The notes below the pieces were generated by a model, which searched no databases, had not been told where the DNA came from, and worked only from the letters and a program-made list of their open reading frames with translations. 64,000 nucleotides of DNA from Candidatus Babeliales bacterium (GTDB taxonomy: Bacteria; Babelota; Babeliae; Babelales; JANWKD01), in the NCBI GenBank assembly GCA_963701665.1, contig OY969622.1, positions 192,001 to 256,000 of the forward strand, given 5' to 3'. A program made the translations under genes and the position numbers. Of this stretch, positions 10,133 to 64,000 are shown piece after piece (position 1 is the first letter of the stretch; each line of letters opens with the position of its first letter).

Positions 10133-10657
10133 TTATTTTTTGAACAAATGGTTGAGTGTGGCATAGGTTGCTATGCTTAAGGTGCTAAAGAATAAAGCAG
10201 ATTTTATCGGGTTTCGTTGCAGTATTGACATCTTGCTTTCGTATTCTTTAATAGCATTATGTGCTGCACTCTGTTCTATAATTTCTTTTTCACTCATGTT
10301 AAGCAACTTTGTATAAGGAAGTGTATGTAGATCATTGGATGTAATTAAAATATATGCTTTGCCTTCGTTTTCATCTGTGAAATAATTTGTGTTACGGTCT
10401 AAGGTCAATTCATGTACATATGCATAACTTACCTCATCATCAGGGGCTTCCGCTGGAGCTAATCGCGCAAAAAGAATTTTTTGTGTATCTAATTTTACTT
10501 TTTTTTGTCGCGGTTTAAGGGATTGTTCTTCATCTTGCATACCATGTGTTGTTTGTGCGACTTGCATACAATGAGTTGACTGTGCAATAAAAGTGCCAAC
10601 AAAAAATACCATACATAAGTTCATTATTTTCATTGCTATCTCCTTAGTTAAAGACAA
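10133..10657 (-). CDS. Hypothetical exported protein with C-terminal hydrophobic helix
   Basis: Signal peptide then MQ; C-terminal TM-like segment. Confidence 0.6.
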   Translation of the reverse strand: MSLTKEIAMKIMNLCMVFFVGTFIAQSTHCMQVAQTTHGMQDEEQSLKPRQKKVKLDTQKILFARLAPAEAPDDEVSYAYVHELTLDRNTNYFTDENEGKAYILITSNDLHTLPYTKLLNMSEKEIIEQSAAHNAIKEYESKMSILQRNPIKSALFFSTLSIATYATLNHLFKK

Positions 10658-25975: not shown

Positions 25976-26641
25976 TTGGGTATGAAGCATATTCTTGAGA
26001 ATAGTAAAAAAATAGCATTGTTACTGCTTTGTTTTCTTTCTTTTTCCGTGGTTGCCATGGACGTTGAGCCTGTAGTTGAAGAACCTCAAGAACTGCAAGA
26101 AGTTCCTGCGCAAGCAGAACAAAAAGAGGCTGCCGCAACAGGAAAAAAACCAAGAGGACAAAGAAGAGGCTACAAAATTCGTTGCCGAGGGCGTAGATGT
26201 TGGATAAAAGGGAAAAAGGGAGCGACAGTTCCGCCTCAGATTAAAAAAGTAGCTGATAACCTTGAAAAAACAGAAGCAGCAAAATCTGATAAGCCTGCTA
26301 CCTTTAAATTTGTATGTGATAAGAAAAAATGTGGCGTAAAACGCAAAGGGTTACGTAGAGGTAAGGGGAAAATTCGTTGCAAGGGTGGTTATTGTAGAAT
26401 CAAAGGAAAAGGCCGAGGAAAATGGAGTGCCAGAAGAAAACAACGGCTTGAATCATATCGTAAACGGCTTGAAGCTACGAAAAAAGGAAAACAAACTGGT
26501 CCAGCCACCTATAAACTTAACTGTGATGGCGAGAAATGTGACGTAAAACAAAAAACTGCTGGAAAAAAATGGGGTGGACGCCGTCGTGGTCGTCATGGTC
26601 GTGGCCGTCGCCGAGGATATGGGCGCGCAAGAACCGCATAA
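25976..26641 (+). CDS. Exported, extremely Arg/Lys/Gly-rich protein with four CxxxxC motifs
   Basis: Signal peptide then MD, acidic segment, duplicated basic modules, protamine-like tail. Confidence 0.7.
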   Translation: MGMKHILENSKKIALLLLCFLSFSVVAMDVEPVVEEPQELQEVPAQAEQKEAAATGKKPRGQRRGYKIRCRGRRCWIKGKKGATVPPQIKKVADNLEKTEAAKSDKPATFKFVCDKKKCGVKRKGLRRGKGKIRCKGGYCRIKGKGRGKWSARRKQRLESYRKRLEATKKGKQTGPATYKLNCDGEKCDVKQKTAGKKWGGRRRGRHGRGRRRGYGRARTA

Positions 26642-37200: not shown

Positions 37201-37779
37201 ATGCTTAAACAAATTTTTGTAGCATTCTTATCTTTAACTAACTTGTCATATGTTCCTGATACCAAAAGAATTTTGGATCATCATGAAGTCCATGATCAGC
37301 AAAAACATTTCAATCATGACAGTTTTCTTACGTCTTGGAACGATGCTAGCTTTAATATGGAAAGCGCGATGAGCATTGCTTTTGAGAGGTATAAAAATAA
37401 TCTGATAGAGCAACAAGAAGCGAAAACAGATAACTATGATACAACAAGAGAAGAACAAGCCTTAGAAAAATTAGCATCTGAAAATTTAGTTCCGGGTACT
37501 ATTCGTGTGCGATACCATAATGGACGAGGATATATAAGCTCGTATCTTCAATTAGAAAATAGTTATTGTTGGCATTATGGTGACTGCTTTCCTACATTGT
37601 ATCTGCACAATGAAAAAAAATTATCCAATCAAGCAGATACATTAAAAACATTAATTTCTGCTGAAAAAAAACCAAAAGTGACGGTATATTTAAGCCGTAA
37701 ACGTCCTTTACAATTTTCCCAATCTAAAAAAATCTTATATTCAATAGATTTAGATTTTACAAAATCCATCGAGTGTTAA
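37201..37779 (+). CDS. Hypothetical protein
   Basis: 192 aa ORF with GGGGG RBS. Confidence 0.6.
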   Translation: MLKQIFVAFLSLTNLSYVPDTKRILDHHEVHDQQKHFNHDSFLTSWNDASFNMESAMSIAFERYKNNLIEQQEAKTDNYDTTREEQALEKLASENLVPGTIRVRYHNGRGYISSYLQLENSYCWHYGDCFPTLYLHNEKKLSNQADTLKTLISAEKKPKVTVYLSRKRPLQFSQSKKILYSIDLDFTKSIEC

Positions 37780-39131
37780 ATTAAACTTTGGAATTCTTGC
37801 CCATCAAATTCTTGAACGCCGTGGTCCACCTGTAGAGTAAGCGTTGATGGCGAATGATTAGCGCGTGCAAAGCTTTCAAATGCGCCCAATGGGTTTGTAT
37901 GCCATCCAACTTTTATAGCAGTGTATCCTGTTGTATTTTCAGGTTTCTCAAATTTATGTCTTTTTTGTTGTAGTATGCCTAAAAGCGTGTGGATGTATGC
38001 TACTTGATTTTGTTGATGATTGATTGAACAGAGCAGAGAAATAAAATTATCAATCTGTCTCATCATTTTTTTTGATTTTTGCGTAGGCAATGCTGTGTCA
38101 TCAATCTTTGCGTCTCTTTGTGCAATGAAAATAGCATTCATATCGCTAAAATCTATCTTGGTTGCATGTTGCTGATTAAGCCCCTTGTTCAAGAAAACAA
38201 TATAGGCTTCTTTTGCTTGATGGAGCAAGTTTGGTGCAGTGATTTGTTCTTTATTGCCAGGATCAATGGCAATAACTAAATGATTTTTTATGGGATTAAT
38301 TTGTTTAAATTCGAAAAATCCTGAGGTATCTGAAAAAACGTTGATGTTGGTTGTGATGCCATTATTTTGAAGATGTGTTCGAAATTCATGAAACAATGAA
38401 CGGCATTCATTATTTTCGCTATATGCTTTATCAAAGCAATATAATCTTTGATGTTGATACCCTCTTTTGCCAAGGATATAGGAAAGCAAATATTCGCTTA
38501 AAAGCAGGCCACTTCCAAAATACTCGCCCGAAAGAGGTTGATGAGCGGTGCACTGATCAGAAGGAAATAATGTTGGTAGTTTTGAAATGACTTTGAGTGT
38601 ACAACCAATTTTATCGTATAAGGTTGCTTTTGTGCACGTACATGTCGCTAGTTGGCGTTCTTCGGCTGGTAGATGAAATTTTTGAAACAATAATTCAACG
38701 CAATAATCTTTAATAGTTTCTTGTATTTCTCGAGAGTCTAGGGTGATGTCTGGATAACGATCGTACAAGGGTACGATTTTTCTGAATTGTTTCTGTGCGA
38801 ATGTTTTATAAAAAATATGTGCTAAAAATAGTTTTGTTGTTTCAGGATCATCTTGAAACAACGGTAATAATCCATTCGCTTTAATTTCTTTTTTTTTGAA
38901 TGATAGGATGTTCTTATCATCAACATCTTCTAGTGCATACTTTTTAAAAGGGGCTTGCGCAACCATAGAGGCGCGCAATTTTTTATAGAGCATATCGACT
39001 GATCGTATGCCCTTGTTATATTCGCAGCAAGTCTTACATTCGGGTTCAGACTCCATGCTTTTAAGTGATGCTGTAAACAATACAATAAGAATTAATACGT
39101 GGGATGCGAAAAGTAGAGGTGTTTTTTTCAT
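37776..39131 (-). CDS. Hypothetical exported protein
   Basis: Signal peptide then ME; 451 aa. Confidence 0.7.
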   Translation of the reverse strand: MKKTPLLFASHVLILIVLFTASLKSMESEPECKTCCEYNKGIRSVDMLYKKLRASMVAQAPFKKYALEDVDDKNILSFKKKEIKANGLLPLFQDDPETTKLFLAHIFYKTFAQKQFRKIVPLYDRYPDITLDSREIQETIKDYCVELLFQKFHLPAEERQLATCTCTKATLYDKIGCTLKVISKLPTLFPSDQCTAHQPLSGEYFGSGLLLSEYLLSYILGKRGYQHQRLYCFDKAYSENNECRSLFHEFRTHLQNNGITTNINVFSDTSGFFEFKQINPIKNHLVIAIDPGNKEQITAPNLLHQAKEAYIVFLNKGLNQQHATKIDFSDMNAIFIAQRDAKIDDTALPTQKSKKMMRQIDNFISLLCSINHQQNQVAYIHTLLGILQQKRHKFEKPENTTGYTAIKVGWHTNPLGAFESFARANHSPSTLTLQVDHGVQEFDGQEFQSLI

Positions 39132-44720: not shown

Positions 44721-46115
44721 TTAATCTTTTTTGGCTTTAGATAAGATTATAACGTTTTCTGACTTATCCTCTTCACAGTGATGAATGAGCACGTATTTAT
44801 CGTCAACATTAACGATTGATTTTATCGGATGATTCGAAATACTTACGTTGCCTGGATCATTAAATCCATCCCGCGCATTATATAGTTTTAGTTGGCCTTT
44901 GCTTGTTCCTGCTAGAAGGAGTTCATCATTAAAAGATGTAAGGGATGTCCATTGTTCATCTTTTTCTGATGGGAGTGTAAACAGTGTGAGTGTTCTTGCT
45001 GGTGTTTTATCGAGCTCAAAGCGAACTAGTTTTTTGCCAAGGAGCCCAATTAAATGATCCTGGAAGCATGCAAGGCCTTGAATAGCATCTTCAAGTTCTT
45101 CAATTCGTCTGAGACAGTTGCCTGTTGCTGTGTCCCATTTTTTTAAACTACGATCCCGTGCAGCAGAATAAGCACATTTTTTAAGGGCAAGCAGCGCTGT
45201 AATGGCACCATTGTGTTGTTCAGAAAACTCTTTTTTACTTGACGTTTCTCCAGATTTATCATGAGGCAAATCATGTTTTATTATGACTCCCTTAGGTGTT
45301 CCTTCTAAAATATAGGAAGGAATCTCTTCTTCATTATACGAAGTGAAAAAGGCACATAGAGGCGGTTTTGAATGGGATGAAATTATGCTTATTTTTAGAT
45401 TCTTTAGCGGTGTAATCATGAGCGATTCAGTTTTTAATGTACTGGTAAAGGGGCAAAAAAGAACTGGGCGATCAGGAAAGCCTAAAGTCTTTTGCCATGT
45501 TCCCAGCGCATTTCTTTTTGTTGTATAGCAATCTATTTCACCATTCTGTTTTGCGGCAAATAGATCATGACCTTTCATAGTAACGAGAGTTGATAGTGCT
45601 TGTAATGGAACTTCACTATAAGCTTTTAAATGGTAATCCTCATAAAGATCTTTTTTTTGAGCTTTTTCAGCTTTTTTTAGTCGCGGACTTTGAACTATGT
45701 TAAAATGAAATTCTTTGTTGGTAAATAAAGAACCATCTATTTTTTTAAACTTTTTTTCTTCATGTGAAGGTAGTGCAATCGAGGTTAGTTGGGGATTTTG
45801 TTTCGTTAAGTATAAGCATCGTTCACGATATACGCTTGCCATGGCACCTTCTTTGAAATATTGTTTATAATGATTGACTAATTTTTCATAGAGCATATTG
45901 GCAAGCTCAACCCTATCCAAAGTAATTGCCGTATGGATACAATCTTCGATGCAATCAAATTGTGTGGGCAGAGAACGTTCGTGAATGGCAGAATCTAATA
46001 GTTCTAGTATTGTAGATTCATCTGCTTGATTTTGCATGATAGAGATAACAAATTCGCTAAAACTTGGATCATGAAACATAGTTGAATCATGCAGCAGCTT
46101 TTTTCTTCTTCCCAT
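44721..46115 (-). CDS. WD40-repeat protein (N-terminus probably in the overlapping ORF 46004-46300)
   Basis: H.GAITAL...SAARDRSLKKWD; paralog of 46352-48169. Confidence 0.75.
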   Translation of the reverse strand: MGRRKKLLHDSTMFHDPSFSEFVISIMQNQADESTILELLDSAIHERSLPTQFDCIEDCIHTAITLDRVELANMLYEKLVNHYKQYFKEGAMASVYRERCLYLTKQNPQLTSIALPSHEEKKFKKIDGSLFTNKEFHFNIVQSPRLKKAEKAQKKDLYEDYHLKAYSEVPLQALSTLVTMKGHDLFAAKQNGEIDCYTTKRNALGTWQKTLGFPDRPVLFCPFTSTLKTESLMITPLKNLKISIISSHSKPPLCAFFTSYNEEEIPSYILEGTPKGVIIKHDLPHDKSGETSSKKEFSEQHNGAITALLALKKCAYSAARDRSLKKWDTATGNCLRRIEELEDAIQGLACFQDHLIGLLGKKLVRFELDKTPARTLTLFTLPSEKDEQWTSLTSFNDELLLAGTSKGQLKLYNARDGFNDPGNVSISNHPIKSIVNVDDKYVLIHHCEEDKSENVIILSKAKKD

Positions 46116-46300
46116 GAAAATTCTTCTTTTTCTTTAGCCCCTTTTTTTCTTTGGCCAGGCGCTTCTTCTTTTTCATCCCATGCATAATAAACATTACCAT
46201 CCTCTCCTTCCTCCATGCCAAAAAGATTTATGGTGCCCAGTAGTATTACTGCAAGAGTAAGAAGAATATTTTTTTTCATATAACTTCCTTTTTTGAACAA
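46004..46300 (-). pseudogene. Signal-peptide-bearing N-terminal fragment of the WD40 gene (frameshift)
   Basis: MKKNILL...LFGMEE; overlaps the downstream ORF in the -1 frame across an A6 run. Confidence 0.55.
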
Positions 46301-46351
46301 ATCTATTCATGAAATTCAAATTACTGAATTTTTCCGAGACGATGCAAGACA

Positions 46352-48169
46352 TCACTCGTTTTTTTGCTTTGGCAAAAGCATAAAAAGTGTGAGTTGTTTA
46401 TCTTTATAGGGCAGTTCTTGAAGGGCCATTATTGCGGTGTGATTTTTAGTGAGTTTTGTGATGGGTACATTTCCCCCTAGTGGAATCTCCCGAATATAAT
46501 TGCCACTTTCTGGATTCCAAACAAGTAGAGTTCCATCTTTATGCCCGGTCAATGCATATTGTTTATAACCAACAATGCTTAAGATGGGCATTAGTATTTC
46601 TCTGGTTCTTGTTTTTTTAAATTCCTGAACTATGTTTTTGTCTTTTTTCTCTTTACCTTTATTGTTAGATTTTTTTCCTTCTAGCGTGGATTCTTGCCAT
46701 ATTTCTAAATAACGCTGACGAGATAAAGAGACTAAAAAATTTGGTTGTACCTTCGCAAGTCCATCAAGAGAGCCTACATCGCTTTTGAGTGTTTGAAGAC
46801 ATTGTTCCTTAAGAAAATCCCAAATTTTAATCGATCCATCGCGAGAAGCTGAGGCAAGAAGATGCTGTTTGCCCATACCCGAAGGATTTTTCTTTGTTTC
46901 CCAGCATGGATTGTGTATGGTTCTGTGTAAAGTAACTAACGCTGTGACAGCATCAGTATGCCCAATCAACTTGCGTACTACTTGACCCTTATGATTGTCA
47001 ACAACAATTTTGCCGGATTTTTTGTCCCCTCTTTTTCCTCGGAAATAAAGTGTCATTGGTTGCTCTTCCCCTGCATCCGTCATAACTAAAAACCAACCAA
47101 CTAAGGCAGCCGTTGGAACATATCTAGGTTTTGTTGTAAGAACATGAATTGAAGGGTCCTTTTTCTTTTGAGCTGCCATATGATACCTAACTTTTGCATC
47201 AGTTGGTTTTTTAAGTATTTCAAATTCTTGCTTATTAACATCATGAAAAAAAATTCCTCGTCGAGTGGCAGCAATAAGCTGTGAACTATGTTTCGGTACC
47301 GTATAGCATACGATATCCTGTGGCAGCGTAAGGTGTAGCGGGTCATTTTCCCAAAATTCCTTGGTACGTTCATAATGAGCCTTAAGATCTCTAAGAGATT
47401 TACAAGAACTCTCAAGGAATCTTACCGAACGAGGGGTTTTAGTAGATCTGAGAGTAGCGCTGCTAAATTGTGAAAGGGTTCTATCAAGGGGAAGATAATC
47501 AGATTGCTTGTATTTACTCATAAGATCGCCCAGTTGTTGTTGAGTTTCAGGAGCAACATAAGGAACAATATAAGTATCGAAAATTGTGTTAAGCTCTTTA
47601 ATAAGTTTTTTTCCAATATCCTGCGCTTGAAAGTGTGTTTGATAAATTCTAATTATATTATTCCATAAATAACAAACAATTTTGGAAGAAGCATCAAGAT
47701 TGTTATAAAGAATAGTTATATATTGGTTGATTTGGTCTTGAGGACTTAAGCGAGATAATTGATCAATGAGTCTATTAAATTCATCGTAATATTCTCTAAT
47801 TTTTTTTTCTTGTGCGAGCTTCTCTAAACTTCTTATGAATTCATTAAAATCGGTAATTTCTTTTGTTGGATCCAATAATTCGGTATGCACATCTTCTTCG
47901 GTTAATAACAATGTGCTAACTTTTTTTTTATTTTTTTTACGACTTCTACTTTTTTTACGATTTTTGCGCTCGTCTTCTTCTTCACTTGTAGTAATAGGTT
48001 TTGCTGCTAATTTAAGTGCGTAGGTGATTTTTCTTTGCTCACCAGTGTCTTTATCGGTTTTTATGATTTCTATACTTTTAGTATTCATGCCAAAAAGAAT
48101 AGTGTTAAAAAGAAATGTTAGGATGCATAATCCGGTGAATATTTTTTTTTGTAAAAAAATGGGATTCAT
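46352..48169 (-). CDS. Exported WD40-repeat protein
   Basis: Signal peptide then MN; GHTDAVTAL...LASASRDGSIKIWD; basic patch. Confidence 0.85.
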   Translation of the reverse strand: MNPIFLQKKIFTGLCILTFLFNTILFGMNTKSIEIIKTDKDTGEQRKITYALKLAAKPITTSEEEDERKNRKKSRSRKKNKKKVSTLLLTEEDVHTELLDPTKEITDFNEFIRSLEKLAQEKKIREYYDEFNRLIDQLSRLSPQDQINQYITILYNNLDASSKIVCYLWNNIIRIYQTHFQAQDIGKKLIKELNTIFDTYIVPYVAPETQQQLGDLMSKYKQSDYLPLDRTLSQFSSATLRSTKTPRSVRFLESSCKSLRDLKAHYERTKEFWENDPLHLTLPQDIVCYTVPKHSSQLIAATRRGIFFHDVNKQEFEILKKPTDAKVRYHMAAQKKKDPSIHVLTTKPRYVPTAALVGWFLVMTDAGEEQPMTLYFRGKRGDKKSGKIVVDNHKGQVVRKLIGHTDAVTALVTLHRTIHNPCWETKKNPSGMGKQHLLASASRDGSIKIWDFLKEQCLQTLKSDVGSLDGLAKVQPNFLVSLSRQRYLEIWQESTLEGKKSNNKGKEKKDKNIVQEFKKTRTREILMPILSIVGYKQYALTGHKDGTLLVWNPESGNYIREIPLGGNVPITKLTKNHTAIMALQELPYKDKQLTLFMLLPKQKNE

Positions 48170-51223: not shown

Positions 51224-52762
51224 ATGAGAAAAATTCTTTTAAGTATTCTGGTATGGGTAGTATGGATACAGAATTCTTATGCCTACAATACAAATTTAAC
51301 GACAGGTTGTTCTGAAAATTTATCGTATTGCCCTCCTGGTTGTGGTGTAGCACGTACCTTTATATTGACACGCCCAGTCTACCGTAATATTGCAGCACAA
51401 TGGTCGTTATGGCACGATGTTGTTTTTAATGCTTGTCAACCGCAAACGTTTGGATTTCAAATATTGCCCATTTTTCAACGCACATTAGGATCAGGCAAAG
51501 TTACTCGTTACTTTTTATTTGATGATGTGCTGCCATGCACCTACAACGACAATTCAGATTTTCTTGTTGTTAAAGGCGATGATGCGGATAACGGTAATCA
51601 ATATAGCCGTGATATTCGTGCTGAATGGATCAATTTGCCCAGTACATTTGCTGGTAGTTTTACCGTTCGTCCAAAACAAGAGGAAGCTGCCGTTTGGCTT
51701 GAAGCATATTACAGTCTTCGTGATACTTTTGAATCTCCTGTTTTAAAAAGTTGCTGGCTCTCTGTTGCATTACCCATCCATTATATGAAAACAGACATTA
51801 ATTTAACTGAATACCCCTCACAACCCACGGTGACTCCTCGGCCAATCGCTCCTACGTCAATTGCTGAGGCGCTTTCAAATCCAGCATGGAATTTTGCAAA
51901 ATTTGGTCCCTCAAAAAAAGAATTTGATGTTGCAGAACTTAATCTGAAAATTGGCAGCAATTTTTTAGATCAAGATGGCTTTCAATTATGTATTTATTCT
52001 TCTGCGGTTGCGCCGTTGCATGGCTACAACAATCCAGGATTTGTGTTTAGTCCCGTGCTAGGAACTAATCGTCATTTTGGGTATGGCACGGGATTAATTT
52101 TGCAGTTACCGATGACCAATGATTGTAATTCTTGTTTTATGGCATTCTTTTTTGAAATTGAAAACATTTATTTTTTCAGAGACTCACAAAAAAGAACCTT
52201 CGATCTAAAATTAAAACCATGGTCACGCTATTTGTTGCTCGTTAATGAAGATGGCAGAACCAATATTCCCGCGGTAAATATTCTGACGCGTGGTGCGCGT
52301 ATACGCCCGTTTAATATGGTTGATATGACAACTGGCGTTCGTTATCAATCGGGTGGCCTTGAAATGGAATTAGGTCTTGATGTATGGGCGCGTGGGCGTG
52401 AAGATGTGAAATTAAAAGAATGTTTTCCCTGCGGCTATGGCATTCAAGGTGTAGGTTTTCTATCGGGCACTAATATTCCAGCAACAGCAAATATGAGCAC
52501 GATTGGTGTTTTGGCTCCTAATGATGTTATTCCTTTTACAACAACTGAGATCTTTGTTCCTATTACCGAAAATGATATTGAATTAACCTCAGCTGCTGCA
52601 CGTGGTGCTATTAATTTTAGGCTACATCTAGCGGGTGGCTATTCGGCATCCTGTAATGATACACTCTTCTTTATTGGCTTTGGCGGATTTTTTGAAGTAC
52701 CTAATTATAATACCGATTTCAAACGCTATGGAGCGTGGGGAAAAATTGGATTCGGTTTTTAA
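51224..52762 (+). CDS. Large putative outer-membrane protein
   Basis: Signal peptide, aromatic-rich strands, ends WGKIGFGF. Confidence 0.65.
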   Translation: MRKILLSILVWVVWIQNSYAYNTNLTTGCSENLSYCPPGCGVARTFILTRPVYRNIAAQWSLWHDVVFNACQPQTFGFQILPIFQRTLGSGKVTRYFLFDDVLPCTYNDNSDFLVVKGDDADNGNQYSRDIRAEWINLPSTFAGSFTVRPKQEEAAVWLEAYYSLRDTFESPVLKSCWLSVALPIHYMKTDINLTEYPSQPTVTPRPIAPTSIAEALSNPAWNFAKFGPSKKEFDVAELNLKIGSNFLDQDGFQLCIYSSAVAPLHGYNNPGFVFSPVLGTNRHFGYGTGLILQLPMTNDCNSCFMAFFFEIENIYFFRDSQKRTFDLKLKPWSRYLLLVNEDGRTNIPAVNILTRGARIRPFNMVDMTTGVRYQSGGLEMELGLDVWARGREDVKLKECFPCGYGIQGVGFLSGTNIPATANMSTIGVLAPNDVIPFTTTEIFVPITENDIELTSAAARGAINFRLHLAGGYSASCNDTLFFIGFGGFFEVPNYNTDFKRYGAWGKIGFGF

Positions 52763-53706: not shown

Positions 53707-56265
53707 ATGAATAAAAATATAGTTTTTTTGATGTTTTTAACCTGTTTTACAGGTTTATTCGCTATGGAAGATCGTTCTAAACCTCAGTCTAATACCATTG
53801 AGCAAAGGCCGACACCATATCAATTTTTAGGTATAGATAAAACAGCAGAGGCAGGGGACATAAAGAAATCCTATGTTCAATTAGCAAAACAGTATCATCC
53901 TGATAAAGCTAAGGGTGATACAGCTGTGGCAGCAGAGTATTTCAAAGTAGTACAATACGCTTATGAAGCACTTACCAAAAACAATGCAATAAACACAGAG
54001 CATGCTAAAAATGATTGGCAAGATTGGGTCAATGAACCCGCAAATATGATGATTAAATCGGCGGCAGAAAAACTACAGGCTGAAATTAAACAAAATCTTG
54101 ATAATAATCAGAATTTGGTAACTATAAAAAAATTAATATTTGATGCGTGTACTTATTATGAGACGCATCTTTCGTGGGTTGATACGACAAGCCAAAAACT
54201 TTTAAAGCGTCTAATGATCGAAAATTATGTTGAACTAACAAGAAGAGTAATAAGAACTAACGATGCAGGTGCGCAAGGAGAAGTATATGAGGCATTCATA
54301 AGAATACGCCCTCATATAAACGATATTGAGGCAGACTTAAAAGAAATAGATAAGTTACTTGATGCATGTCGAGCAAAACGTGATGCGGGCAAAAAAAATC
54401 TTCAGCCAAAGTCGAATCAGACGAGTGTTGCTTTCATGGATTCTGGGGATCTTTATGCTATTTTGGAGATAAGCCCTCTTGCAAACCAAGAAGAAATAAA
54501 CAATGCCTTTCTAAAATTGCAGACAAAATATAAGCCTTATTCATTTGCAGAAGGATCGCAAGAACGTAAGCGAGCAGAATACCAATTTAAGCCGATCTGG
54601 GATGCATTTGATACATTGGGTAATAAACAAAGAAGAGCTATCTACGATAAAAAAAGATTAAAAGCATTTGATACTTCCGCACAAAATACAGAACAACCTT
54701 CGAGAAAAAGACCCTCAGAGAATGATGGAAAAAATGCTCGCCCTGAAAAATTCGCAAAGCAAGATAATACTCAAAAGTCTTCAAAAGATGACGAAAATAT
54801 AAAGAAATTAATAAATGCGATAAACAGTGAAAATAATGCCGTGGATAACTATATAACAAACATGGGACGCAGCGAAAATATTGAACTTAATCCCCATGAA
54901 TTTTTTGAAAAAATTTGTCAGCAATATAATAAAACATTGAAGTTTCTTACTGCTACTACAAAACATGCCGATTTTTTACAACAATATAAGGACCTTGCCG
55001 ATGTAATTAATGAAACAAGCAAAAACTTTTATAGTGCTGCCAATTTTGTATATGAAAAAGGCAAAGATAAGGGATGGTTCTTATATTCGCTTCAGAAAGC
55101 ATGTGAACTGAACGAGCTTGCATTACAGTGTGCAAAGTATTTGCAATCAATTGAAGGTGAAAAAATTATGGAGAGTTGCCGCAAGCAACACAATGTTTTT
55201 ATAAAATACTTAATTGATTTATACGAAAGTTTTGATTATTTAGAGCTGTTTTTTACTGATTTATCTATTCCAGTGCATTATCGTAATAATACATTCACCA
55301 TTTTAAAAGAAGATTGTAAAAAAGAGGAATTTTCAGTTTTGAAAGAAAAATTGCCTAAGCTTTCCTATAGCATCGCTGAACATTATTTTAACCAAGGATT
55401 ATATGAAGATGCAAAAAAACTGGTTATTGCTCTTATTCGAGGCAACATGACAAGAGACAGAACAAGGTTAAGAAAAAGCAAAGATTTATTAAATAAAATT
55501 AAAGCTGCGTCTGCAGCTAAAATGGAGCAAGAAAGTGTTTATTTCTTGAATCGGTTTGAAAATGATACTCACGCGCTGAGTAATGTAATTAGATCTTATA
55601 AAATTAATAAGTCTAATGATGAGCAAACGCTATTAGCAATTCGCAACAACTGCAAACAATATGTTGATTTCATTTGGTCGAATCGCGAGCAGACTCTTTC
55701 GCCTCAAACGTATACAAATATTCTGGATAATTGTATGCAGATCATGCATGATTTACAGGAAGCAAAGCTATTCTATCCTGAATGCATAGAGCTAGTATCC
55801 CTTTGTCTCAATTTCCCTTGGAAAAACCCAGAGATTCTTAAAGAAAGTATAGAGCCCATGAGTAATTATGCTCTTGGAGCGATACTTTCTGAAGTACAAT
55901 TCACACCAGAGGATTTGAAAGATGATAAAAAATTATCGTCACTCGCTCAGAAAATGCTTTCTGAAAATCAATGTAATTTTTTTGTTAGAACGTTAGGATA
56001 CATTCGTTCTCCGAATACCTATGAAAGTGCTACCAATGCTATTCTTAAATGTTACTTTGCTTTAGCCGAACAGTTGAGCGATCATGGTAATTATTCTGAT
56101 GCACTTTTAATGCTTGATACTGCGATGCTGCGATATCGCATGGGTAGTTTACGAGAAAATTTTGAGAGTTTAAAAGCTCAGGTATGCGTATTACAAGACT
56201 TGCAAAATCCAACTAGCTTTGATGAAGACGAATTATTAAAAGAACTGTTTGAACAACATAATTGA
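53707..56265 (+). CDS. Exported protein with two J-domains (first with HPD)
   Basis: Signal peptide then ME; PY.FLG...IKK.Y..LA..YHPDK; second J-like domain lacks HPD. Confidence 0.85.
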   Translation: MNKNIVFLMFLTCFTGLFAMEDRSKPQSNTIEQRPTPYQFLGIDKTAEAGDIKKSYVQLAKQYHPDKAKGDTAVAAEYFKVVQYAYEALTKNNAINTEHAKNDWQDWVNEPANMMIKSAAEKLQAEIKQNLDNNQNLVTIKKLIFDACTYYETHLSWVDTTSQKLLKRLMIENYVELTRRVIRTNDAGAQGEVYEAFIRIRPHINDIEADLKEIDKLLDACRAKRDAGKKNLQPKSNQTSVAFMDSGDLYAILEISPLANQEEINNAFLKLQTKYKPYSFAEGSQERKRAEYQFKPIWDAFDTLGNKQRRAIYDKKRLKAFDTSAQNTEQPSRKRPSENDGKNARPEKFAKQDNTQKSSKDDENIKKLINAINSENNAVDNYITNMGRSENIELNPHEFFEKICQQYNKTLKFLTATTKHADFLQQYKDLADVINETSKNFYSAANFVYEKGKDKGWFLYSLQKACELNELALQCAKYLQSIEGEKIMESCRKQHNVFIKYLIDLYESFDYLELFFTDLSIPVHYRNNTFTILKEDCKKEEFSVLKEKLPKLSYSIAEHYFNQGLYEDAKKLVIALIRGNMTRDRTRLRKSKDLLNKIKAASAAKMEQESVYFLNRFENDTHALSNVIRSYKINKSNDEQTLLAIRNNCKQYVDFIWSNREQTLSPQTYTNILDNCMQIMHDLQEAKLFYPECIELVSLCLNFPWKNPEILKESIEPMSNYALGAILSEVQFTPEDLKDDKKLSSLAQKMLSENQCNFFVRTLGYIRSPNTYESATNAILKCYFALAEQLSDHGNYSDALLMLDTAMLRYRMGSLRENFESLKAQVCVLQDLQNPTSFDEDELLKELFEQHN

Positions 56266-56302
56266 TACTAAAGGGAGCCTGAATACTTAAAATGGAGTTT
56301 TT

Positions 56303-59239
56303 ATGAATAAAAATATAGCTTTTTTGATGTTTTTATCCTGTTTTACAGGGTTATTTGCTATGGAAGAGCGCCCTCGGGCCCAGTTCGTTGCATTGACCCC
56401 TTATGATTTTTTAGGCCTCGACAAAACAGCAAAACCTGAAGATATAACAAAAAGTTACAGAAAATTAGCATCTGTAATTCATCCCGATAAATCTAAAAAG
56501 CCCATGGCTGAAGAGTGCTTCAAAGCAATTTGTAATGCTCATGAAGTGCTTGGCGACGATAAAGTGAAAGCTTATTACGATGAGCAGGATTGGCAAGGTT
56601 GGACAAATCCTGCATCCAGTACTGTAGTGGATAGTGAAGTTATGAAGATACATGCCCGTCAAGAAGCACTTGAAGTACATATAAGAAATAATCCGTGGGA
56701 CTTAGCAACAATAATGAAAATGACGAATGAAGCATGTAATTATTATGAGAAGTATTTTTCAAGAGCTAATGAAGAAGGTCAAAAACTTTTAAAGAATCTT
56801 GTGATAACAAATCGCCTTGAGTTAGCAAAAATGATGATTGGTACTAATGATACTAATGAACAGCAACAAGCGAGAGAGCAGCTTGAAAGAATACGAATTC
56901 ATGCAACTGAAATTCAATCGCCATTTCTTCAAGAAATAAATCAATTATTATCACGCTATATTCCCTCGCCGAGTCCGAAGCAGAAACAATCAAGTTATAC
57001 AGATTTCGATCTAATTTGTACTGCATATGAAAGTTTGAGATTTAGACGTACAGCCTTGGATAAGAAAGAATTAGAGATATGTAGTCAGATTTTAGGTGTA
57101 AGCTGTCGTGCACATATTAAAACAATAGAAGCCGCTTATAGGCATTTGGTTAGTCTAGGCGACTTATTGGCATCGAATTTATCGCTACAGCAAGTGCAGG
57201 CGTTACAATCAATGCGTGCGGCAAAAACAGGAACAGCAAATCGATCCGAAAATATGCGAGATCCTTACGAGATCTTAGGGATACGTAACGGTTCAGATTA
57301 TAAGGAAATTGACGCTGCATATCAGGAAAGAAGAATATCGCTATATCTTAAACTTAGCGAATTGAAGAAAGTCTCGGATGCATATACGGTAACTCAAAAT
57401 GAAATAGCCCAAATTGAAGAAGCGTATCGTTATTTAAGAAATCAAAAAACGAGAAATATACATGAAAAAGACACTAGTGGATCTGATCAAAAACAAAATA
57501 TTAATGATACCATACGCAAATATCAAGAGCAGCTTGGAAAACTTTACGGTCAGCGTGCCAATTGGGTGACTATACGAAAATTAGTTGATGAATCTTATGA
57601 GTATTATAGCAATGTTCTCAAAAATCATGGGCCTTTTGAGATGATAAAGGATCATATAGCAAATAATTATGCGAACCTTATACGAGAAGGTCTTAGATTA
57701 CATGAGTTTAATATGTGCTATGTAATTGAGCAAGGTTGGATTAAGAAGATAATCGAGAATACTGAAATCGAATCGGCTAATCGTTCTTATGTAGCAATGC
57801 TAATGCGTGAATATGAACGTAAAAATAAAAATGCTGGATCATATGATAAGCAGAGTTTTGCAAACAGTAATGCACCTGAAGTTAAAGATGATGTACAAAT
57901 CAAAAAACAAATTGTTGATACCATAAATGACTATCAAGAAAGATTAGATAGGCTTTTTAAACACAATCCTCAGGATAATTTTGAAGTTATAAAAACATTA
58001 GTGAATGAATCTTATGGTAAATATATGGAGATTCTTGAAACATGTTTTGATGCGGGACTCCGAGCAAAGATCAAGGGTTGCATATCTGATAATTATACAC
58101 AGCTTATAGTGGTAGGTCTTAACGAACCGCTTGAGGCTCTCATGCGCTGTGCGATAGAGCAGGTATGGTTTGACCGTGTATTGGAAAATGCGCAAATAGG
58201 TTCAAAAAATTATAATTTCGTGAAAGGATTGCTAGATAATCATGGGTCTGGTACACGAACAGAGCAGCAGCCAAGAGATAAACAAAGTGTTCGGTCTCAA
58301 AAGATCAAATCTCAAGAGATTTTAAAAAAAGTTAAAGAGTATCAGGAACGACTTGACGCCTTTTTTCAGGACATCACTCTTATATATAATAAAAAATCAT
58401 CTAATATGGATGAAATAAAATCATTAGTTTATGAGTCTCACGATTATTATAGATCCATTTTAGCATTAGCGTCATCGGAACATGCACATGTTCGTAACAT
58501 GCTTAGAAAACATTTATCAAATAATTATTCGAGACTTGTAAAAAAAGGCCTTTTAGGCTTTGGGATTCAATTGGATTGGGTACAATTGGGAATTGAATAT
58601 TCTGAAGTAGGAACCCCTAATTATATCTATTTAAAACAGATAGAGGCTGAATGCTTTAAGCAACAAAATAACACGAAAAAACGATCGTTCAGCGAGACAA
58701 ATAGCGATACAGATGAGGAAAACGAAACAGAAGAATCTGAAAATGTAGGTCAGCCTCAACAAAAACAAGCAAAAGTTGAACGTGAAAAAGAACAAGAACA
58801 TACAGCATCGGATCAAAATGAGGCTGCAAACAAGCATAGAAGTCCTCATTATTCTTCTATACGACATCAAATTGAAACGATACATGGATTGTTGGATAAA
58901 GGGTTAGATTCAGTTTCTGCTAAGGATGCTGTTATCTCAAGTCCGGGCTATTTTAATAATTTATTACAAAACATACCATCTCGTGATGATCGTAAAAGCG
59001 CTGCTATTGAGATACTTGGACTTTATCAAAAAGTAGTTGAAAAATTGATAGATACGGGCGCCGAGAATACTGCGTGCATTATAATGGATGCTGCAGACGC
59101 ATTAATTAAGAGAGAAATACACAGTGCGCGCGATAGATGCGCTCTGTTAAAAGCTCAAGTATCGGTAATGCAGGGCGTACCAAATTCTGCGGATGAGATA
59201 GATTCATTATTGGATGCGGTGCTTGAAGAGCATAGTTGA
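56303..59239 (+). CDS. Exported protein with an HPD J-domain plus degenerate J-like domains
   Basis: IHPDK; DPYEILG...EI.AAY; internal helical repeats. Confidence 0.85.
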   Translation: MNKNIAFLMFLSCFTGLFAMEERPRAQFVALTPYDFLGLDKTAKPEDITKSYRKLASVIHPDKSKKPMAEECFKAICNAHEVLGDDKVKAYYDEQDWQGWTNPASSTVVDSEVMKIHARQEALEVHIRNNPWDLATIMKMTNEACNYYEKYFSRANEEGQKLLKNLVITNRLELAKMMIGTNDTNEQQQAREQLERIRIHATEIQSPFLQEINQLLSRYIPSPSPKQKQSSYTDFDLICTAYESLRFRRTALDKKELEICSQILGVSCRAHIKTIEAAYRHLVSLGDLLASNLSLQQVQALQSMRAAKTGTANRSENMRDPYEILGIRNGSDYKEIDAAYQERRISLYLKLSELKKVSDAYTVTQNEIAQIEEAYRYLRNQKTRNIHEKDTSGSDQKQNINDTIRKYQEQLGKLYGQRANWVTIRKLVDESYEYYSNVLKNHGPFEMIKDHIANNYANLIREGLRLHEFNMCYVIEQGWIKKIIENTEIESANRSYVAMLMREYERKNKNAGSYDKQSFANSNAPEVKDDVQIKKQIVDTINDYQERLDRLFKHNPQDNFEVIKTLVNESYGKYMEILETCFDAGLRAKIKGCISDNYTQLIVVGLNEPLEALMRCAIEQVWFDRVLENAQIGSKNYNFVKGLLDNHGSGTRTEQQPRDKQSVRSQKIKSQEILKKVKEYQERLDAFFQDITLIYNKKSSNMDEIKSLVYESHDYYRSILALASSEHAHVRNMLRKHLSNNYSRLVKKGLLGFGIQLDWVQLGIEYSEVGTPNYIYLKQIEAECFKQQNNTKKRSFSETNSDTDEENETEESENVGQPQQKQAKVEREKEQEHTASDQNEAANKHRSPHYSSIRHQIETIHGLLDKGLDSVSAKDAVISSPGYFNNLLQNIPSRDDRKSAAIEILGLYQKVVEKLIDTGAENTACIIMDAADALIKREIHSARDRCALLKAQVSVMQGVPNSADEIDSLLDAVLEEHS

Positions 59240-59265
59240 TAGTATAGATATAAAATGGAGTTTTT

Positions 59266-61008
59266 ATGAATAAGAATATACTTTTTTTAATTATTTTAAG
59301 TTGCTTTACCGGTTTATTTGCTATGGAAGAGCGCCAACCATCGCATGGACAAGGAGTCGATTTATATCTACTTTTAAGAGTTAACAATGATGCTACGACC
59401 CAGGATATAGATACGGCTTACAAAGCACTTGAACATCGAGAAATAATGTCAGGATTTAAAACTGTAGATTATTTTTTCAATGTTGTTCGAGCTTATAAAA
59501 TTTTATCTAATGATAAGTTGAGAAATATCTATGATAACCGTGGCCCTAGCGCTGCAGATGTTGCTTTATATGCTACAGGATATCCGCACGCAACCGATTT
59601 GGCTGTTCGAACTAGAATAGCGAAGGATCAAGATGATCTTAGATCAAAAGACGGTAATGCGTTGCTGAAGCTTATAAAAGAAGTAAATGCTTACTATCGA
59701 GGACACTTGTTTATGGGGACCGCCAAGTTATGTGATACATTGCGTGATTGTATAGCACAAAATTACTATAATCTTGCACATGGTTTATTCTGTAATGTTA
59801 GATATAATCATGATGCAGTGCTAGAGTACATCAAGCAAGGGTTGAATTTTGCATTACCTGAGAGTCCTGCTTCTAATGCCTTAAAAGCTTTCGCCAATAA
59901 GTTACAAAAGCCAACAGAGTCTAAAACAAAGTCGCCGAGAGTTGATCTTCAACAATGGCATCCATCTACAAATATTCAACAAGAAGCGGCTCTTGATCTT
60001 CTAGATGATACTAATGCAAAAATTTTAAATGTAGTAGAAGATAGAGAAGCTTTCGAAACGCCAAAAGTGTTTTGTAAAAAAATATACGAATACTTAGATG
60101 CATACGCGAACTATACTATGCCAGCTTCATTGGAAAAGGATCGGAATTTTTCAAGTAAGCGTCATCTATGCAGTGCATTAACACATAGCGCAGCTGAAAA
60201 ATTACTTGGAATGTCAAAAGACACCATTTGGCATATCTATGGATTACAGCATGCAAAAATATTATGCCAAAAGGCATCAGATCATACTTTGCGTTTACCA
60301 AATATCAAACGGTATAGAAATACAAAGCAAACTATAGAAAGTAGTATTGTAACCATACAAGGATCTTTAGATGCTTGGTATACGCAAGGTACTTGTCTAG
60401 TTAATTTCTTTATAAGCCCTGAAATACCGCTAGATCTTTGTAAAGATGTATGGGCAACTATGATCAATGATATTGCAAGATTTAGTGTTGAAACACAAGA
60501 TGTAATGCTCGATTGTACCTATCAATTGGCACGACGATGTTTGAATGAACATTATTATGATGAAATTATAGATATAAATTTAAAAGTCTTGGCAAATCAG
60601 TATATACAATCTAGGGCTGATTTTGTTGCTCAATATCGAGAACTTATCGATAGTGCGCTCAATAACCTTGAACAACAATGCAGTACATTTTTCAAAGCGT
60701 TCCATGGTGAATTTCTCATGAGGTATGACAACAAGGATTCATCGGAAGCTTTAGCAGACATTATTCAAAATTATTTTACAATGCAATATATGCCATCACA
60801 ATCCATTGAAACAATGTTTGGTGATATCTTTTTACTATATACACGGCGGCTTGAACCCGAAAAAAAATGGGATAAAATGTACGAGTTAGCATGGCGCTGC
60901 TTAACTTTTAATAGATGGCCTGCGCATATTCAGAAACATGAACTTTTTACAACCATGCGCAAATTTATTACTAACTATGAAGATCTAAAAGCCAAAGGGC
61001 TTATGTAA
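59266..61008 (+). CDS. Exported protein with degenerate J-domain
   Basis: LY.LL.V..DAT..DI..AY...AYKILSN..LR.IYD, no HPD. Confidence 0.8.
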   Translation: MNKNILFLIILSCFTGLFAMEERQPSHGQGVDLYLLLRVNNDATTQDIDTAYKALEHREIMSGFKTVDYFFNVVRAYKILSNDKLRNIYDNRGPSAADVALYATGYPHATDLAVRTRIAKDQDDLRSKDGNALLKLIKEVNAYYRGHLFMGTAKLCDTLRDCIAQNYYNLAHGLFCNVRYNHDAVLEYIKQGLNFALPESPASNALKAFANKLQKPTESKTKSPRVDLQQWHPSTNIQQEAALDLLDDTNAKILNVVEDREAFETPKVFCKKIYEYLDAYANYTMPASLEKDRNFSSKRHLCSALTHSAAEKLLGMSKDTIWHIYGLQHAKILCQKASDHTLRLPNIKRYRNTKQTIESSIVTIQGSLDAWYTQGTCLVNFFISPEIPLDLCKDVWATMINDIARFSVETQDVMLDCTYQLARRCLNEHYYDEIIDINLKVLANQYIQSRADFVAQYRELIDSALNNLEQQCSTFFKAFHGEFLMRYDNKDSSEALADIIQNYFTMQYMPSQSIETMFGDIFLLYTRRLEPEKKWDKMYELAWRCLTFNRWPAHIQKHELFTTMRKFITNYEDLKAKGLM

Positions 61009-62941
61009 GCATCGGCTTTAATAGTTAGGGACGAAATTTTAAAATTTATGGAGGGGATAAAAAAATGACTATTTCAATAAAGAACATTATTTTTTTAGGT
61101 ATTTTGAGTATTTCATGCGGTATGCCATTGTTTGGTATGGAAGAACGCCGACCATTGCCTGCACAAGAAGTTAGTTTATATACACTATTAAAACTCGATA
61201 ATAATGCGACTGAAGAGCAAATAAAAACTGCATTTACAAATCTTCAAAATGCCCAAATAGAATCGGGCTTTAAAGATGAGGAGAATTTCTTTAGTGTTGC
61301 ACTTGCGTATAAAATTTTATCAAATAATGAGCTGAGAGAATGCTATGATAACTATGGTTATATCGTAGCCTATAATGATTTACGCATGAAAGGATATTCA
61401 CAGAAAGTTGATTTGGAGGTTAAGGCCAAAATAGAAGAATATCAAAATGTACTTCAGAAATCATTGATGAGCATGGATACTTTAACAATACAAATTGATA
61501 CAAAAAAAGTAAATGATTTCTACCAAGCAAATTTGTTTAAGGGCACCCCTGAACTATGTGATACATTGCGCGATTATATAGCACAAAATTACTATAATCT
61601 GGCGCGTGGTTTATATGCTGTTAAATATAAGCGTAATCAAGTGTTAGAATACATTAAGCAAGGATTGAATTTTGCATTAGCTGAGAGTTATTTTTCTAAT
61701 GAATTAAAAGCTCTTCAAAATGAGTTGCAAAATCAAACAAAGTCTCAAACAGAGTTATCACCAGTTGGGTTTCAATGGCACCAATCTCGAGAATCCAAAG
61801 CTTATGTAGATAATCAACGAGAAATAGTTCTTAATTTTCTAAATGATACTAATGCAAAAGTTTTAAATGCATTAAAAGATAAAGAAGCTTTCGAAACGCC
61901 AACAACGTTTTGTAAAAAAATATATGAATACTTAGATGCATTAGCGAACTATGATGTGCAAGTGGATTTAAAAAATGATCTTGTTTTTTTACGTAAGCGC
62001 TATATGTGCGGTGAATTTACCTATAAAGCAGCCGAAAAATTACGTAAAATGTCACAAGGCACCATCTGGTATAGCTATGGATTACAGCATAGAAAAATAT
62101 TATGCCAAAAGGCATTAGGTCATATTTTGTGTTTACAAAATCTCAATAAATATAGAAATACAAAGCGTAGTATAGAAAGCGATATTGTAAAGATACAAGG
62201 ACTTTTAGATTCATGGTATACGCAGGGTGGCTGTTTGCTTGATTTCTTTATAAATCCTGAAATACCGCTAAATCTTTGTAAAGATGTATGGGCAACTATG
62301 ATCGATGATATTGGAAGATTTAGCGTTGAAACACAAGATGTAATGCTCGATTGTACCTATCAATTGACACGACGATGTTCGAGTGAGCATTATTATGATG
62401 AAATTATAGATATAAGTTCAAAAGCCTTGGCAAATCAGTATATACAATCTAGGGTTGATTTTGTTGCTCGATATAAACACCTTATCGATAGTATATTCAA
62501 TGAAGTCTTTGATACGTGCCGCCGTGGATTGCGCACAAAGCATGAAAACAAAGTTTCAGCTGAGACTTTGGCTGACCATATTATTCAAAATTATTTTACA
62601 ATCCAACATATGTCATCACAATCTATCAAAACAATGTTTGAGGATATTCTTTTAATATATACGCAGCGGCTTGAACCTGAAATGAAATGGGATAAAATGT
62701 ATGAATTAGCAAAAAGCTGCTTAACTTTTGATAAGTGGCCTCAACACATTCAGATACATAGACTTTTTATAACGATGCGTACGTTTAAGGCTCGGTATGA
62801 AACGTTAAAAGCTCGAGGGCGTATATAAGCATCGGCTTTAATAGTTAGGGACGAAATTTTAAAATTTATGAGGGGGATAAAAAAAATGACTATTTCAATA
62901 AAGAACATTATTTTTTTAGGTATTTTAAGTATTTCATGCGG
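61006..62941 (+). repeat. ~115-bp direct repeats at 61006-61120 and 62826-62941
   Basis: Near-identical intergenic region plus signal-peptide coding sequence. Confidence 0.9.
61065..62828 (+). CDS. Exported protein with degenerate J-domain, close paralog of previous gene
   Basis: Same J-like pattern; long near-identical central block. Confidence 0.8.
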   Translation: MTISIKNIIFLGILSISCGMPLFGMEERRPLPAQEVSLYTLLKLDNNATEEQIKTAFTNLQNAQIESGFKDEENFFSVALAYKILSNNELRECYDNYGYIVAYNDLRMKGYSQKVDLEVKAKIEEYQNVLQKSLMSMDTLTIQIDTKKVNDFYQANLFKGTPELCDTLRDYIAQNYYNLARGLYAVKYKRNQVLEYIKQGLNFALAESYFSNELKALQNELQNQTKSQTELSPVGFQWHQSRESKAYVDNQREIVLNFLNDTNAKVLNALKDKEAFETPTTFCKKIYEYLDALANYDVQVDLKNDLVFLRKRYMCGEFTYKAAEKLRKMSQGTIWYSYGLQHRKILCQKALGHILCLQNLNKYRNTKRSIESDIVKIQGLLDSWYTQGGCLLDFFINPEIPLNLCKDVWATMIDDIGRFSVETQDVMLDCTYQLTRRCSSEHYYDEIIDISSKALANQYIQSRVDFVARYKHLIDSIFNEVFDTCRRGLRTKHENKVSAETLADHIIQNYFTIQHMSSQSIKTMFEDILLIYTQRLEPEMKWDKMYELAKSCLTFDKWPQHIQIHRLFITMRTFKARYETLKARGRI

Positions 62942-64000
62942 CATATCATTATTTGGTATGGAAGAACGCCGGCCGACGGAAGCGGTTAGTTTATATGAAT
63001 ATTTAAGCGTTAAGAATGATGCTACTGCTCAGGATCTGGATATGGCTTACAAAGCACTTGAAGATGAGGAAATAAGATCGGGATTTAAAACTTTGGATTA
63101 TTTTTTCGACGCTGTTCAAGCTTATAAAATTTTATCGGATAATGAGCTGAAACAAGTATATGATCAGCATGGCTATGCATCAGCATATAATCAATTGATC
63201 CTTAAAGGCTATCCTCAAAAAATTGATGAGGATGTGCAGAGCCGGATGAAAAAATATCAATATGAACTTAAAAATAATCCGAAAGATACAGTTTCCTTTC
63301 AAGATAGTACAAAAAAGGTGAATGCATACTATCAAGCACAATTGTTTATGGGCACTCGAGCCTTATGCAATGAACTGCGCAGAGTTATAGCGCAAAACTG
63401 CTATGATCTTGCGCGTTTTCTTTATGGTATTCAATTGTGTAGACACATACGTGCCTACGAAGTACAGCAAGGCATTCAAATATGCGCCTATATTGACGAA
63501 GGATTACGTTTTGCTCTATCCGATAGCCCTCTTGTGCGTGAGTTAGCAAGTTTAAGAAAAAAAATTACTGATCGGGCAGAACAAAGCATGAAAAAGATCG
63601 AAGATGGGAAGGGTATATTGGTTATACCAAGAAAAAACTTTTATATCTATGAATCTTCTGAAATCAAAAAACGTAAAATAAAGGAAAAGGATGATACAAA
63701 AAAAGTTGCTCGTAAACAGAAACAGAGCAAATCTCCACGGCTTGAAAAAGTAGATGATGAACAAAAAAATAAAGCAAAAACATCATTCTCAGATAAACTA
63801 AAAATAATGGGATTATTGGAAAATAACAATAAAAATCTTGCTTATATTCTAGAAAATATGCCCCCTGCGTGGACACCTAAGATGCTTTTTGAAAAAATAT
63901 GTGAAGTTTCGGAGCGACGCGATAATAATGATGATACAATGAATTTATTGCAACATGATCCTGATATTGTACGTGCCCGTTTTATAGGTGGCCAGTTACT
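62886..64000 (+). CDS. Fifth exported J-like protein, truncated by window end
   Basis: MTISIKNIIFLGILSISCGISLFGMEERRPTEAVSLYEYLSVKNDATAQDLDMAYKAL...AYKILSD. Confidence 0.8.
   Translation, partial: MTISIKNIIFLGILSISCGISLFGMEERRPTEAVSLYEYLSVKNDATAQDLDMAYKALEDEEIRSGFKTLDYFFDAVQAYKILSDNELKQVYDQHGYASAYNQLILKGYPQKIDEDVQSRMKKYQYELKNNPKDTVSFQDSTKKVNAYYQAQLFMGTRALCNELRRVIAQNCYDLARFLYGIQLCRHIRAYEVQQGIQICAYIDEGLRFALSDSPLVRELASLRKKITDRAEQSMKKIEDGKGILVIPRKNFYIYESSEIKKRKIKEKDDTKKVARKQKQSKSPRLEKVDDEQKNKAKTSFSDKLKIMGLLENNNKNLAYILENMPPAWTPKMLFEKICEVSERRDNNDDTMNLLQHDPDIVRARFIGGQL

Follow-up and report, generated by a model that had tools for sequence, protein, structure and literature searches.

The closest described counterparts of the genes discussed here come from a plant pathogen, a eukaryotic parasite and a bacterium of the same order. 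HopI1 of Pseudomonas syringae binds and stimulates plant Hsp70 (PMC6321325, PMC6802931). Plasmodium falciparum has an expanded set of exported J-domain proteins (JDPs), among which those of type IV (RESA-like) have a corrupted HPD motif and a reduced charge of helix II (PMC10349383). For Babela massiliensis, Pagnier 2015 describes three Babela-specific DnaJ-domain proteins, counted within an unexplained excess of chaperones (PMC4378268). We analysed a stretch of 64,000 nucleotides (hereafter the window) from a Candidatus Babeliales bacterium (assembly GCA_963701665.1, contig OY969622.1, positions 192,001 to 256,000) and found in it a tandem array of exactly five intact paralogous genes on the same strand (g1–g5; Table 1). 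They encode proteins of 580–978 amino acids (aa), which begin with a predicted export signal followed by a J-domain or J-like domain and a helical module. We consider it somewhat better than an even chance that these are exported, host-delivered J and TPR-like proteins, of which g1 and g2 would recruit host Hsp70, while g3–g5 would act without it.

HopI1 shares with the proposal for g1 and g2 a bacterial HPD-bearing J-domain aimed at the Hsp70 of a host. It is, however, a type III effector encoded by a single gene, with a P-loop, PQ repeats and a chloroplast target, whereas the proteins of the array combine a Sec signal, an N-terminal J-domain and TPR-like repeats, and form a series of paralogues with HPD-less copies. 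The Plasmodium type IV proteins resemble g3–g5 in their altered HPD and lowered helix II charge; Plasmodium is, however, a eukaryotic parasite with its own export route and its own exported Hsp70, whereas the source genome of the array (G000) encodes no exported Hsp70, and the likeness lies at the level of the J-domain. The Babela trio (Babela_gene_225, 224 and 223; PMC4378268) is likewise in tandem and its leaders end in a small residue followed by Met; one member has HPD and two lack it (supplement file 9). Its proteins are of 334–356 aa, against the sizes given above, and the likeness is drawn from the J-domain, the leader and the arrangement. The supplement contains two further J proteins with SignalP support, and the main text of Pagnier 2015 makes no mention of HPD, Hsp70 or DnaK (PMC4378268).

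P58IPK/DNAJC3 and the bacterial DnaJ-TPR proteins of class C join a J-domain to helical TPR-like repeats, as is the case here, and match at the level of the fold. DjlA has a hydrophobic N-terminus and a J-domain, as do the array proteins; its J-domain is C-terminal and cytoplasmic and works with DnaK, whereas in the array it is N-terminal, and the NCBIfam DjlA model gave 33 bits (J-domain only) against 162 bits. The large T antigen of SV40 has an N-terminal J-domain followed by a nuclear localisation signal (NLS) and remodels host nuclear complexes with Hsc70; being a viral protein with helicase and Rb-binding parts, it serves as an analogy only. In the portion at hand, a large survey of J proteins excluded sequences with several J-domains or without HPD, and this phylum goes unmentioned there (PMC10410713), and a review of bacterial Hsp70 systems names no secreted J protein in the part consulted (PMC8215388). 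Our literature search, mainly of openly readable text, found no paper that treats J proteins of Babeliales as effectors. The suggestion of an earlier note on this DNA that the family is undescribed thus applies to the combination of J-domain and TPR-like module; it does not extend to J-domain effectors as such (HopI1, the exported JDPs of Plasmodium), and the Babela trio is already in print.

The earlier note had counted at least five tandem J genes, with signal-like starts ending in LF(A/G)ME and a J-domain near each N-terminus. All of this was corroborated: five open reading frames (ORFs) are present, the ORFs that follow lie on the opposite strand, so the array stops there, and the starts are called as signals by our manual hydropathy rule. 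With a Pfam cut-off for DnaJ (PF00226) of 27.8 bits, g1 and g2 score far above it (101.8 and 88.5 bits; E = 2e-29 and 3e-25), whereas g3, g4 and g5 lie at or below it (25.7, 27.8 and 19.7 bits; E = 1e-5, 3e-6 and 9e-4). As had also been noted, g1 and g2 keep HPD, situated between helices II and III, and carry further J-like domains (both without HPD), and the motif is absent from g3–g5. No Pfam match to the features of class A/B DnaJ proteins (G/F region, zinc finger, DnaJ_C) was found and the NCBIfam scores are far below cut-off; the canonical dnaJ is located elsewhere in the genome. By Pfam score and HPD, g1 and g2 are candidate class C J-domain proteins, which may stimulate Hsp70; g3–g5, which lack the HPD of a functional class C co-chaperone, belong to the J-like or type IV class (J fold with altered HPD).

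Stimulation of Hsp70 requires both HPD and a basic helix II. These two elements also form the Hsp70 interface of J-domains (PMC10410713, PMC10349383). The net charge of helix II is +2 in g1 and g2, and -2, +1 and -5 in g3, g4 and g5, respectively; two of the three key basic positions are basic in g2, and one of three in each of the other four. In our wider sample, whose averages include kin that are not independent, the mean helix II charge was +2.7 in domains with HPD (n=81; two of three key basics in 66) and +0.6 in those without (n=30; seven). Since both HPD and the basic helix II have been lost in g3–g5, a role of these proteins as decoys of Hsp70, which the earlier note had proposed, is unlikely.

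The loss of HPD along the array had been called progressive, and in this the analysis led elsewhere. At the HPD site g3–g5 have one replaced loop in common, and in a J-domain tree (70 columns, with unsettled bootstrap and hence rough support) they form one clade (97/79) and g1–g2 another (95/99). The shared loop and the clade therefore point to one common event of loss, and rule out gradual decay. Recombination among the array copies is evident at the level of sequence: the J-like domain of g3 is nearest to that of g5 (63%), its body is nearest to that of g4 (66%), and the leader of g4 is 92% like that of g5. In the J region (about 62 codons), dN/dS was 0.20 between g1 and g2, and 0.34–0.69 among g3–g5.

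The source genome consists of one contig (1.34 Mb, 37% GC) with four ATP/ADP translocases, 40 ankyrin genes and two secretins, whose neighbours are T2SSC and PilM/T2SSL. Two gspD copies are also reported for TM6 (PMC4776705), and a load of secreted ankyrin proteins for Babela and Chromulinavorax (PMC4378268, PMC6561590). The bacterium is likely a parasite of protists, a host range suggested by the Babela and Chromulinavorax isolates. There is a single DnaK in the genome, without signal peptide and thus cytoplasmic, and a second Hsp70-family match resembles MreB by sequence; a secreted Hsp70 partner of the bacterium's own is thereby ruled out. To our knowledge, the bacterial periplasm contains neither ATP nor Hsp70. 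With the sole DnaK in the cytoplasm, an exported HPD J-domain would have no partner of its own.

The leaders of all five proteins have an n-region of charge +1 (one Lys) and then 16–18 residues without charge; position -3 is Leu, position -1 is Ala or Gly, and Met-Glu comes next; the 15 residues after this junction have a net charge of 0 to -2, and no second hydrophobic segment follows. By the manual rule they are of Sec type rather than type III signals. Export by Sec and cleavage before Met are predicted, and charge pattern and hydropathy favour an N-in/C-out orientation, which the charges predict even without cleavage. A lipobox was not found by eye, and the idea that the proteins are lipoproteins was dropped.

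Another feature connected with the leaders is the junction itself. A small residue, Met and a polar residue follow a hydrophobic stretch in 182 of 1170 filtered ORFs of the genome, so (A/G)ME cannot be regarded as a tag specific to the array. When the third residue was left free, Glu, Asp, Gln or Asn came next in 153 of 224 junctions, compared with 18% of 1331 internal controls. Proteins starting with Met-Glu, Met-Asp, Met-Gln or Met-Asn are substrates of eukaryotic NatB (PMC4794598). The junction occurs in 24/40 ankyrin genes, 4/7 WD40 genes and the single Skp1-like gene, versus 1/7 annotated envelope residents. As NatB works mostly on nascent chains, the agreement may have arisen otherwise, for instance from a preference of the peptidase or of secretion. 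In total, about 180 exported proteins of the genome have a predicted mature start of this kind (examples in the window are 10133-10657, 25976-26641, 37776-39131 and 46352-48169).

The C-terminal parts of the proteins had been described as large helical orphan regions. They are indeed helical, but they are homologous among the five and thus not orphans: a module of about 105 aa (M) occurs in all of them, in four copies in g2, and a further helical body is common to g1, g3, g4 and g5. An AlphaFold2 model of g4 from a 15-row alignment consists of helices throughout, apart from a disordered linker (201–222); its mean pLDDT is 80.3 and its pTM 0.49. Its J-like part matches the J-domain of ERdj5 (Z 9.8, rmsd 2.1, 69 residues), in a model whose alignment included HPD J-domains. 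Its M matches the three-TPR domains of co-chaperones (Sec72 Z 11.8, FKBP38 11.2, Cpr7 9.9, Tah1 9.8; FKBP52 is also within the range of 9.7–11.8), where Z values under about 13 can reflect a common helical arrangement, and its body aligns to helical-repeat solenoids. A TPR-like fold is therefore a prediction from the model, and the likeness to Sec72, FKBP38 and Tah1 (the EEVD-binding type of TPR) is one of fold: Pfam gave no TPR match in M, and the best hit of the M profile among PDB sequences had E = 0.022. A single-sequence model of g3 (pLDDT 40) was not used; the ESM Atlas gave weak DnaJ/TPR and ARM-repeat leads for g3, with recognition under the reliable level, and no usable match for the g2 repeats. 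The M alignment (register by eye) has an invariant Tyr and Asn and a near-invariant Gln. The clamp of EEVD-binding TPR domains is Lys/Asn/Asn/Lys/Arg; in M no Lys or Arg column is conserved at 90% and such a carboxylate clamp is not evident, and for this reason binding of the Hsp70 tail by M is a lead only. A short sixth member of the family lies outside the array (G000:C1:541124-541807, L093), with the leader, an HPD-less J-like domain that clusters with those of g3–g5, and one M.

The family was then set against its relatives. Module M is strong in 2/151 Babeliales genomes (the source genome and G001 of the same genus), with five more marginal cases (E 9e-4 to 1e-2), and 14 proteins match among 1.84 billion representatives. 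Two distant full-length homologues (P0026 and P0031) have the same leader, an HPD J-domain and M. The syntenic site of G001 contains one homologue of 780 aa and two short HPD-less J genes. A separate row in the genome G003 comprises one HPD gene and two HPD-less genes; a profile-profile comparison gave no significant match between its body and this family (probability 4%), and BLAST links the row to the family modestly, through P0031 (E 9e-6 to 1e-3). In the wider order, 60 relatives yielded 178 J matches (including 13 of the source genome; median 2.5 per relative), and from the 150 listed of these 178, 80 loci around non-canonical-looking matches were taken. These held 94 J ORFs, i.e. four canonical and 90 others, the latter including three cut-off dnaJ starts and some fragments. 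A signal-like start was found in 72 of the 90 non-canonical J ORFs among the matches listed, all counted in Babeliales alone; HPD was kept in 56 of these 72, a share biased upward because Pfam favours HPD-bearing domains. The array can thus be seen as a lineage-restricted exported J and TPR-like family inside a set of exported J proteins that extends across the order.

The survey also revealed other J proteins. An exported protein of 650–750 aa, with a long insert in an HPD-less J-like domain (G000:C1:712238-714280, L097; also L005, L007, L008 and L011), has been conserved in at least two families of the order and is also listed in the supplement on Babela; it may have a housekeeping function in the envelope. 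Exported J proteins with one HPD J-domain and HPD-less copies (G000:C1:1061290-1062690, L094; L004 and L006) have in common a C-terminal leucine-rich amphipathic helix, possibly an export or targeting signal. In several Babeliales, a small leaderless gene consisting of an HPD J-domain only adjoins dnaJ (L033, L036, L037).

Basic motifs of the linkers raised the question of nuclear targeting. Strict NLS patterns (with the expectation taken from shuffles) occur in 7/15 family proteins versus 1.7 expected, six of them in a linker and one, that of g3, in a helix. When the pattern was relaxed, after the data had been seen, it fitted 11/15, including g1 and g2, the exceptions being g3, g4, P0025 and P0029. 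Nuclear targeting of the family is accordingly put forward as a lead from sequence patterns. Genome-wide, the junction class had 27 NLS versus 9.6 expected. After collapse of paralogues this became 15 versus 8.4–10.6, compared with 21 versus 14 in other signal-bearing proteins; since the enrichment shrinks to the level of the latter, nuclear targeting of this class across the genome was no longer counted as strong evidence.

Under the mechanism that we favour, the five proteins would leave the cytoplasm by Sec with predicted cleavage before Met, cross the outer membrane through a two-secretin type II-like system or in vesicles, and act in the cytosol or nucleus of a protist host. There, host Hsp70 would be recruited by the HPD J-domains of g1 and g2 to targets that the TPR-like modules hold, and g3–g5 would probably bind similar targets without Hsp70. 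The idea of host Hsp70 recruitment finds indirect support for g1 and g2 in the Babeliales genome with its ATP/ADP translocases, ankyrin genes and one leaderless DnaK, in the N-in/C-out charges and in the order-wide retention of HPD; for g3–g5 the neutral or acidic helix II weakly opposes the decoy role. A more specific version is rather unlikely: the mature Met-Glu start would be a NatB substrate, the linker NLS would lead to the host nucleus, Hsp70 would dismantle nuclear complexes there, and the HPD-less paralogues would be Hsp70-independent competitors.

Several observations weigh against host delivery and Hsp70 recruitment. A type II substrate would still need a path into the host cytosol, and the signals were called by the manual hydropathy rule. 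The J-domain of g1 keeps just one of the three key basic residues, the syntenic gene of G001 reads HPS instead of HPD, and the limits given with the two order-wide counts apply. One Omp85 carries the junction, which moreover occurs in just 18 of the 72 export-signal J ORFs among the matches listed. The NLS of g1 and g2 fits only the loose post-hoc pattern, g4 has none, and the collapsed genome-wide counts point the same way. Z values near 11, below the safe level, are common for helical bundles, and Foldseek found no match at E<=0.001 in the PDB or among viral models.

These points bear differently on the alternatives. The proteins might be exported and yet remain periplasmic or on the surface, the J-domain being a relic or structural cap in which Hsp70 is uninvolved. 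A Sec signal by itself reaches the periplasm only, HPD loss affects three of the five genes, the second J-like domain of g1 as well as that of g2, and the G001 and G003 arrays, and the higher dN/dS of the HPD-less J regions agrees with such a fate. We nevertheless regard it as unlikely, as most export-signal J domains across the order, widely diverged as they are, still have HPD together with a basic helix II, and the 10–14 cysteines, the basic linker motifs and the junction held in common with ankyrin, WD40 and Skp1-like proteins suit a eukaryotic destination better.

Alternatively, g3–g5 might bind host Hsp70 but not stimulate it, and so block or tune it, as the earlier note supposed. The J fold is preserved in the g4 model, the J-like domain of g3 and g4 is identical between strains (62/62 residues) while the body varies (87–92%), and M is similar to TPR domains whose ligand is the C-terminal tail of Hsp70/Hsp90. 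The surface that chiefly binds Hsp70 is, however, helix II, which in these proteins has lost its basic character and all but one of the three key basics, and M has no Lys or Arg column conserved at 90%; we therefore judge this improbable. The least probable explanation is an uncleaved N-terminal anchor with a cytoplasmic J-domain, as in DjlA, which would make the proteins co-chaperones of the bacterium's own DnaK. It draws on the hydropathy of the g4 and g5 segments (mean 1.76–1.94 over 19 residues) and on Pagnier 2015, which places the Babela DnaJ-domain proteins with chaperones, the SignalP sums of the trio being 1, 1 and 0 of 3. The segments of g1–g3 are, however, weakly hydrophobic (1.29–1.63) with a cleavage-type end, the charges predict the opposite topology, ankyrin proteins carry the same leader, the DjlA model scores far below its cut-off, and rapid change of copy number with recombination is unlike housekeeping genes.

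Table 1. Features of the array (window positions; aa, amino acids; J, J-domain; M, helical module; ORF, open reading frame)
Feature	Position	Strand	Size or residues	Parts (residues) and remarks	Basis
Gene 1 (g1)	53707..56265	+	852 aa	predicted signal 1-19; HPD J 35-101; M 116-221; HPD-less J-like 247-316; basic linker 333-351; helical body 367-852; acidic C-terminal tail	ORF, Pfam, domain comparison
g1 HPD motif	53896..53904	+	64-66		sequence
g1 second J-like domain	54445..54654	+		HPD-less	sequence comparison
g1 linker NLS-like basic motif	54703..54760	+		fits loose post-hoc pattern only	
Gene 2 (g2)	56303..59239	+	978 aa	predicted signal; HPD J 33-93; M1 112-219; HPD-less J-like 319-390; M2-M4 400-504, 537-647, 673-784; basic/acidic linker 792-825; C-terminal helices common to g1	ORF, Pfam, domain comparison
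g2 HPD motif	56480..56488	+	60-62		sequence
g2 J-like domain	57257..57472	+		HPD-less	sequence comparison
g2 extra M copies, three	57500..58654	+	~105 aa	helical	
Gene 3 (g3)	59266..61008	+	580 aa	predicted signal; HPD-less J-like 31-92; M 114-213; short linker; helical body	
Gene 4 (g4)	61065..62828	+	587 aa	predicted signal; HPD-less J-like 36-97; M 119-221; disordered linker; helical body	
Gene 5 (g5)	62886..64000 in window	+	619 aa	predicted signal; HPD-less J-like 34-95; M 117-227; linker with KKRK 261-264; helical body; end equivalent to window position 64745, 745 bases beyond the window	

A GGAG/GAGG-like site lies upstream of each of the five genes, and the start of g5 was chosen because the same ribosome-binding-site-like stretch precedes it as in g4. 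The counterparts of g2 and g3 in close relatives (P0004, P0008, P0020, P0022) are shorter, about 590–600 aa and 250–390 aa, owing either to strain variation or to assembly indels. Just beyond the window, groEL (G000:C1:259227-260765, L096) has several frame changes, whereas the G001 copy is intact; these are probably assembly indels, and gene boundaries in the source genome should therefore be taken with caution. Elsewhere in the window, a signal-bearing protein of 512 aa (51224-52762) that ends in Phe, without Pfam match, is likely an outer-membrane barrel; the genome encodes a paralogue of it, and G001 has an orthologue (69%). Two exported WD40 beta-propeller proteins are encoded in tandem on the minus strand (44721-48169), and an Rfam scan of the window returned two tRNAs and nothing else.

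To conclude, much of the proteome of Babeliales is secreted, and we found in the literature no effector of theirs with a tested mechanism. The predicted export of HPD J-domains points to Hsp70 as a likely host target, and the HPD-less paralogues constitute built-in negative controls. The Met-Glu/Asp/Gln/Asn junction may serve as a marker of host-delivered proteins in the order. If the favoured mechanism is true, the “excess of chaperones” of Babela would be recast as host manipulation, and the array would represent convergence with HopI1 and the exported J proteins of Plasmodium by way of a Sec/type II route. Should the nuclear version also be true, these proteins would be a bacterial counterpart of the J-domain of viral T antigen, and exported J-domains an order-wide toolkit of host manipulation.

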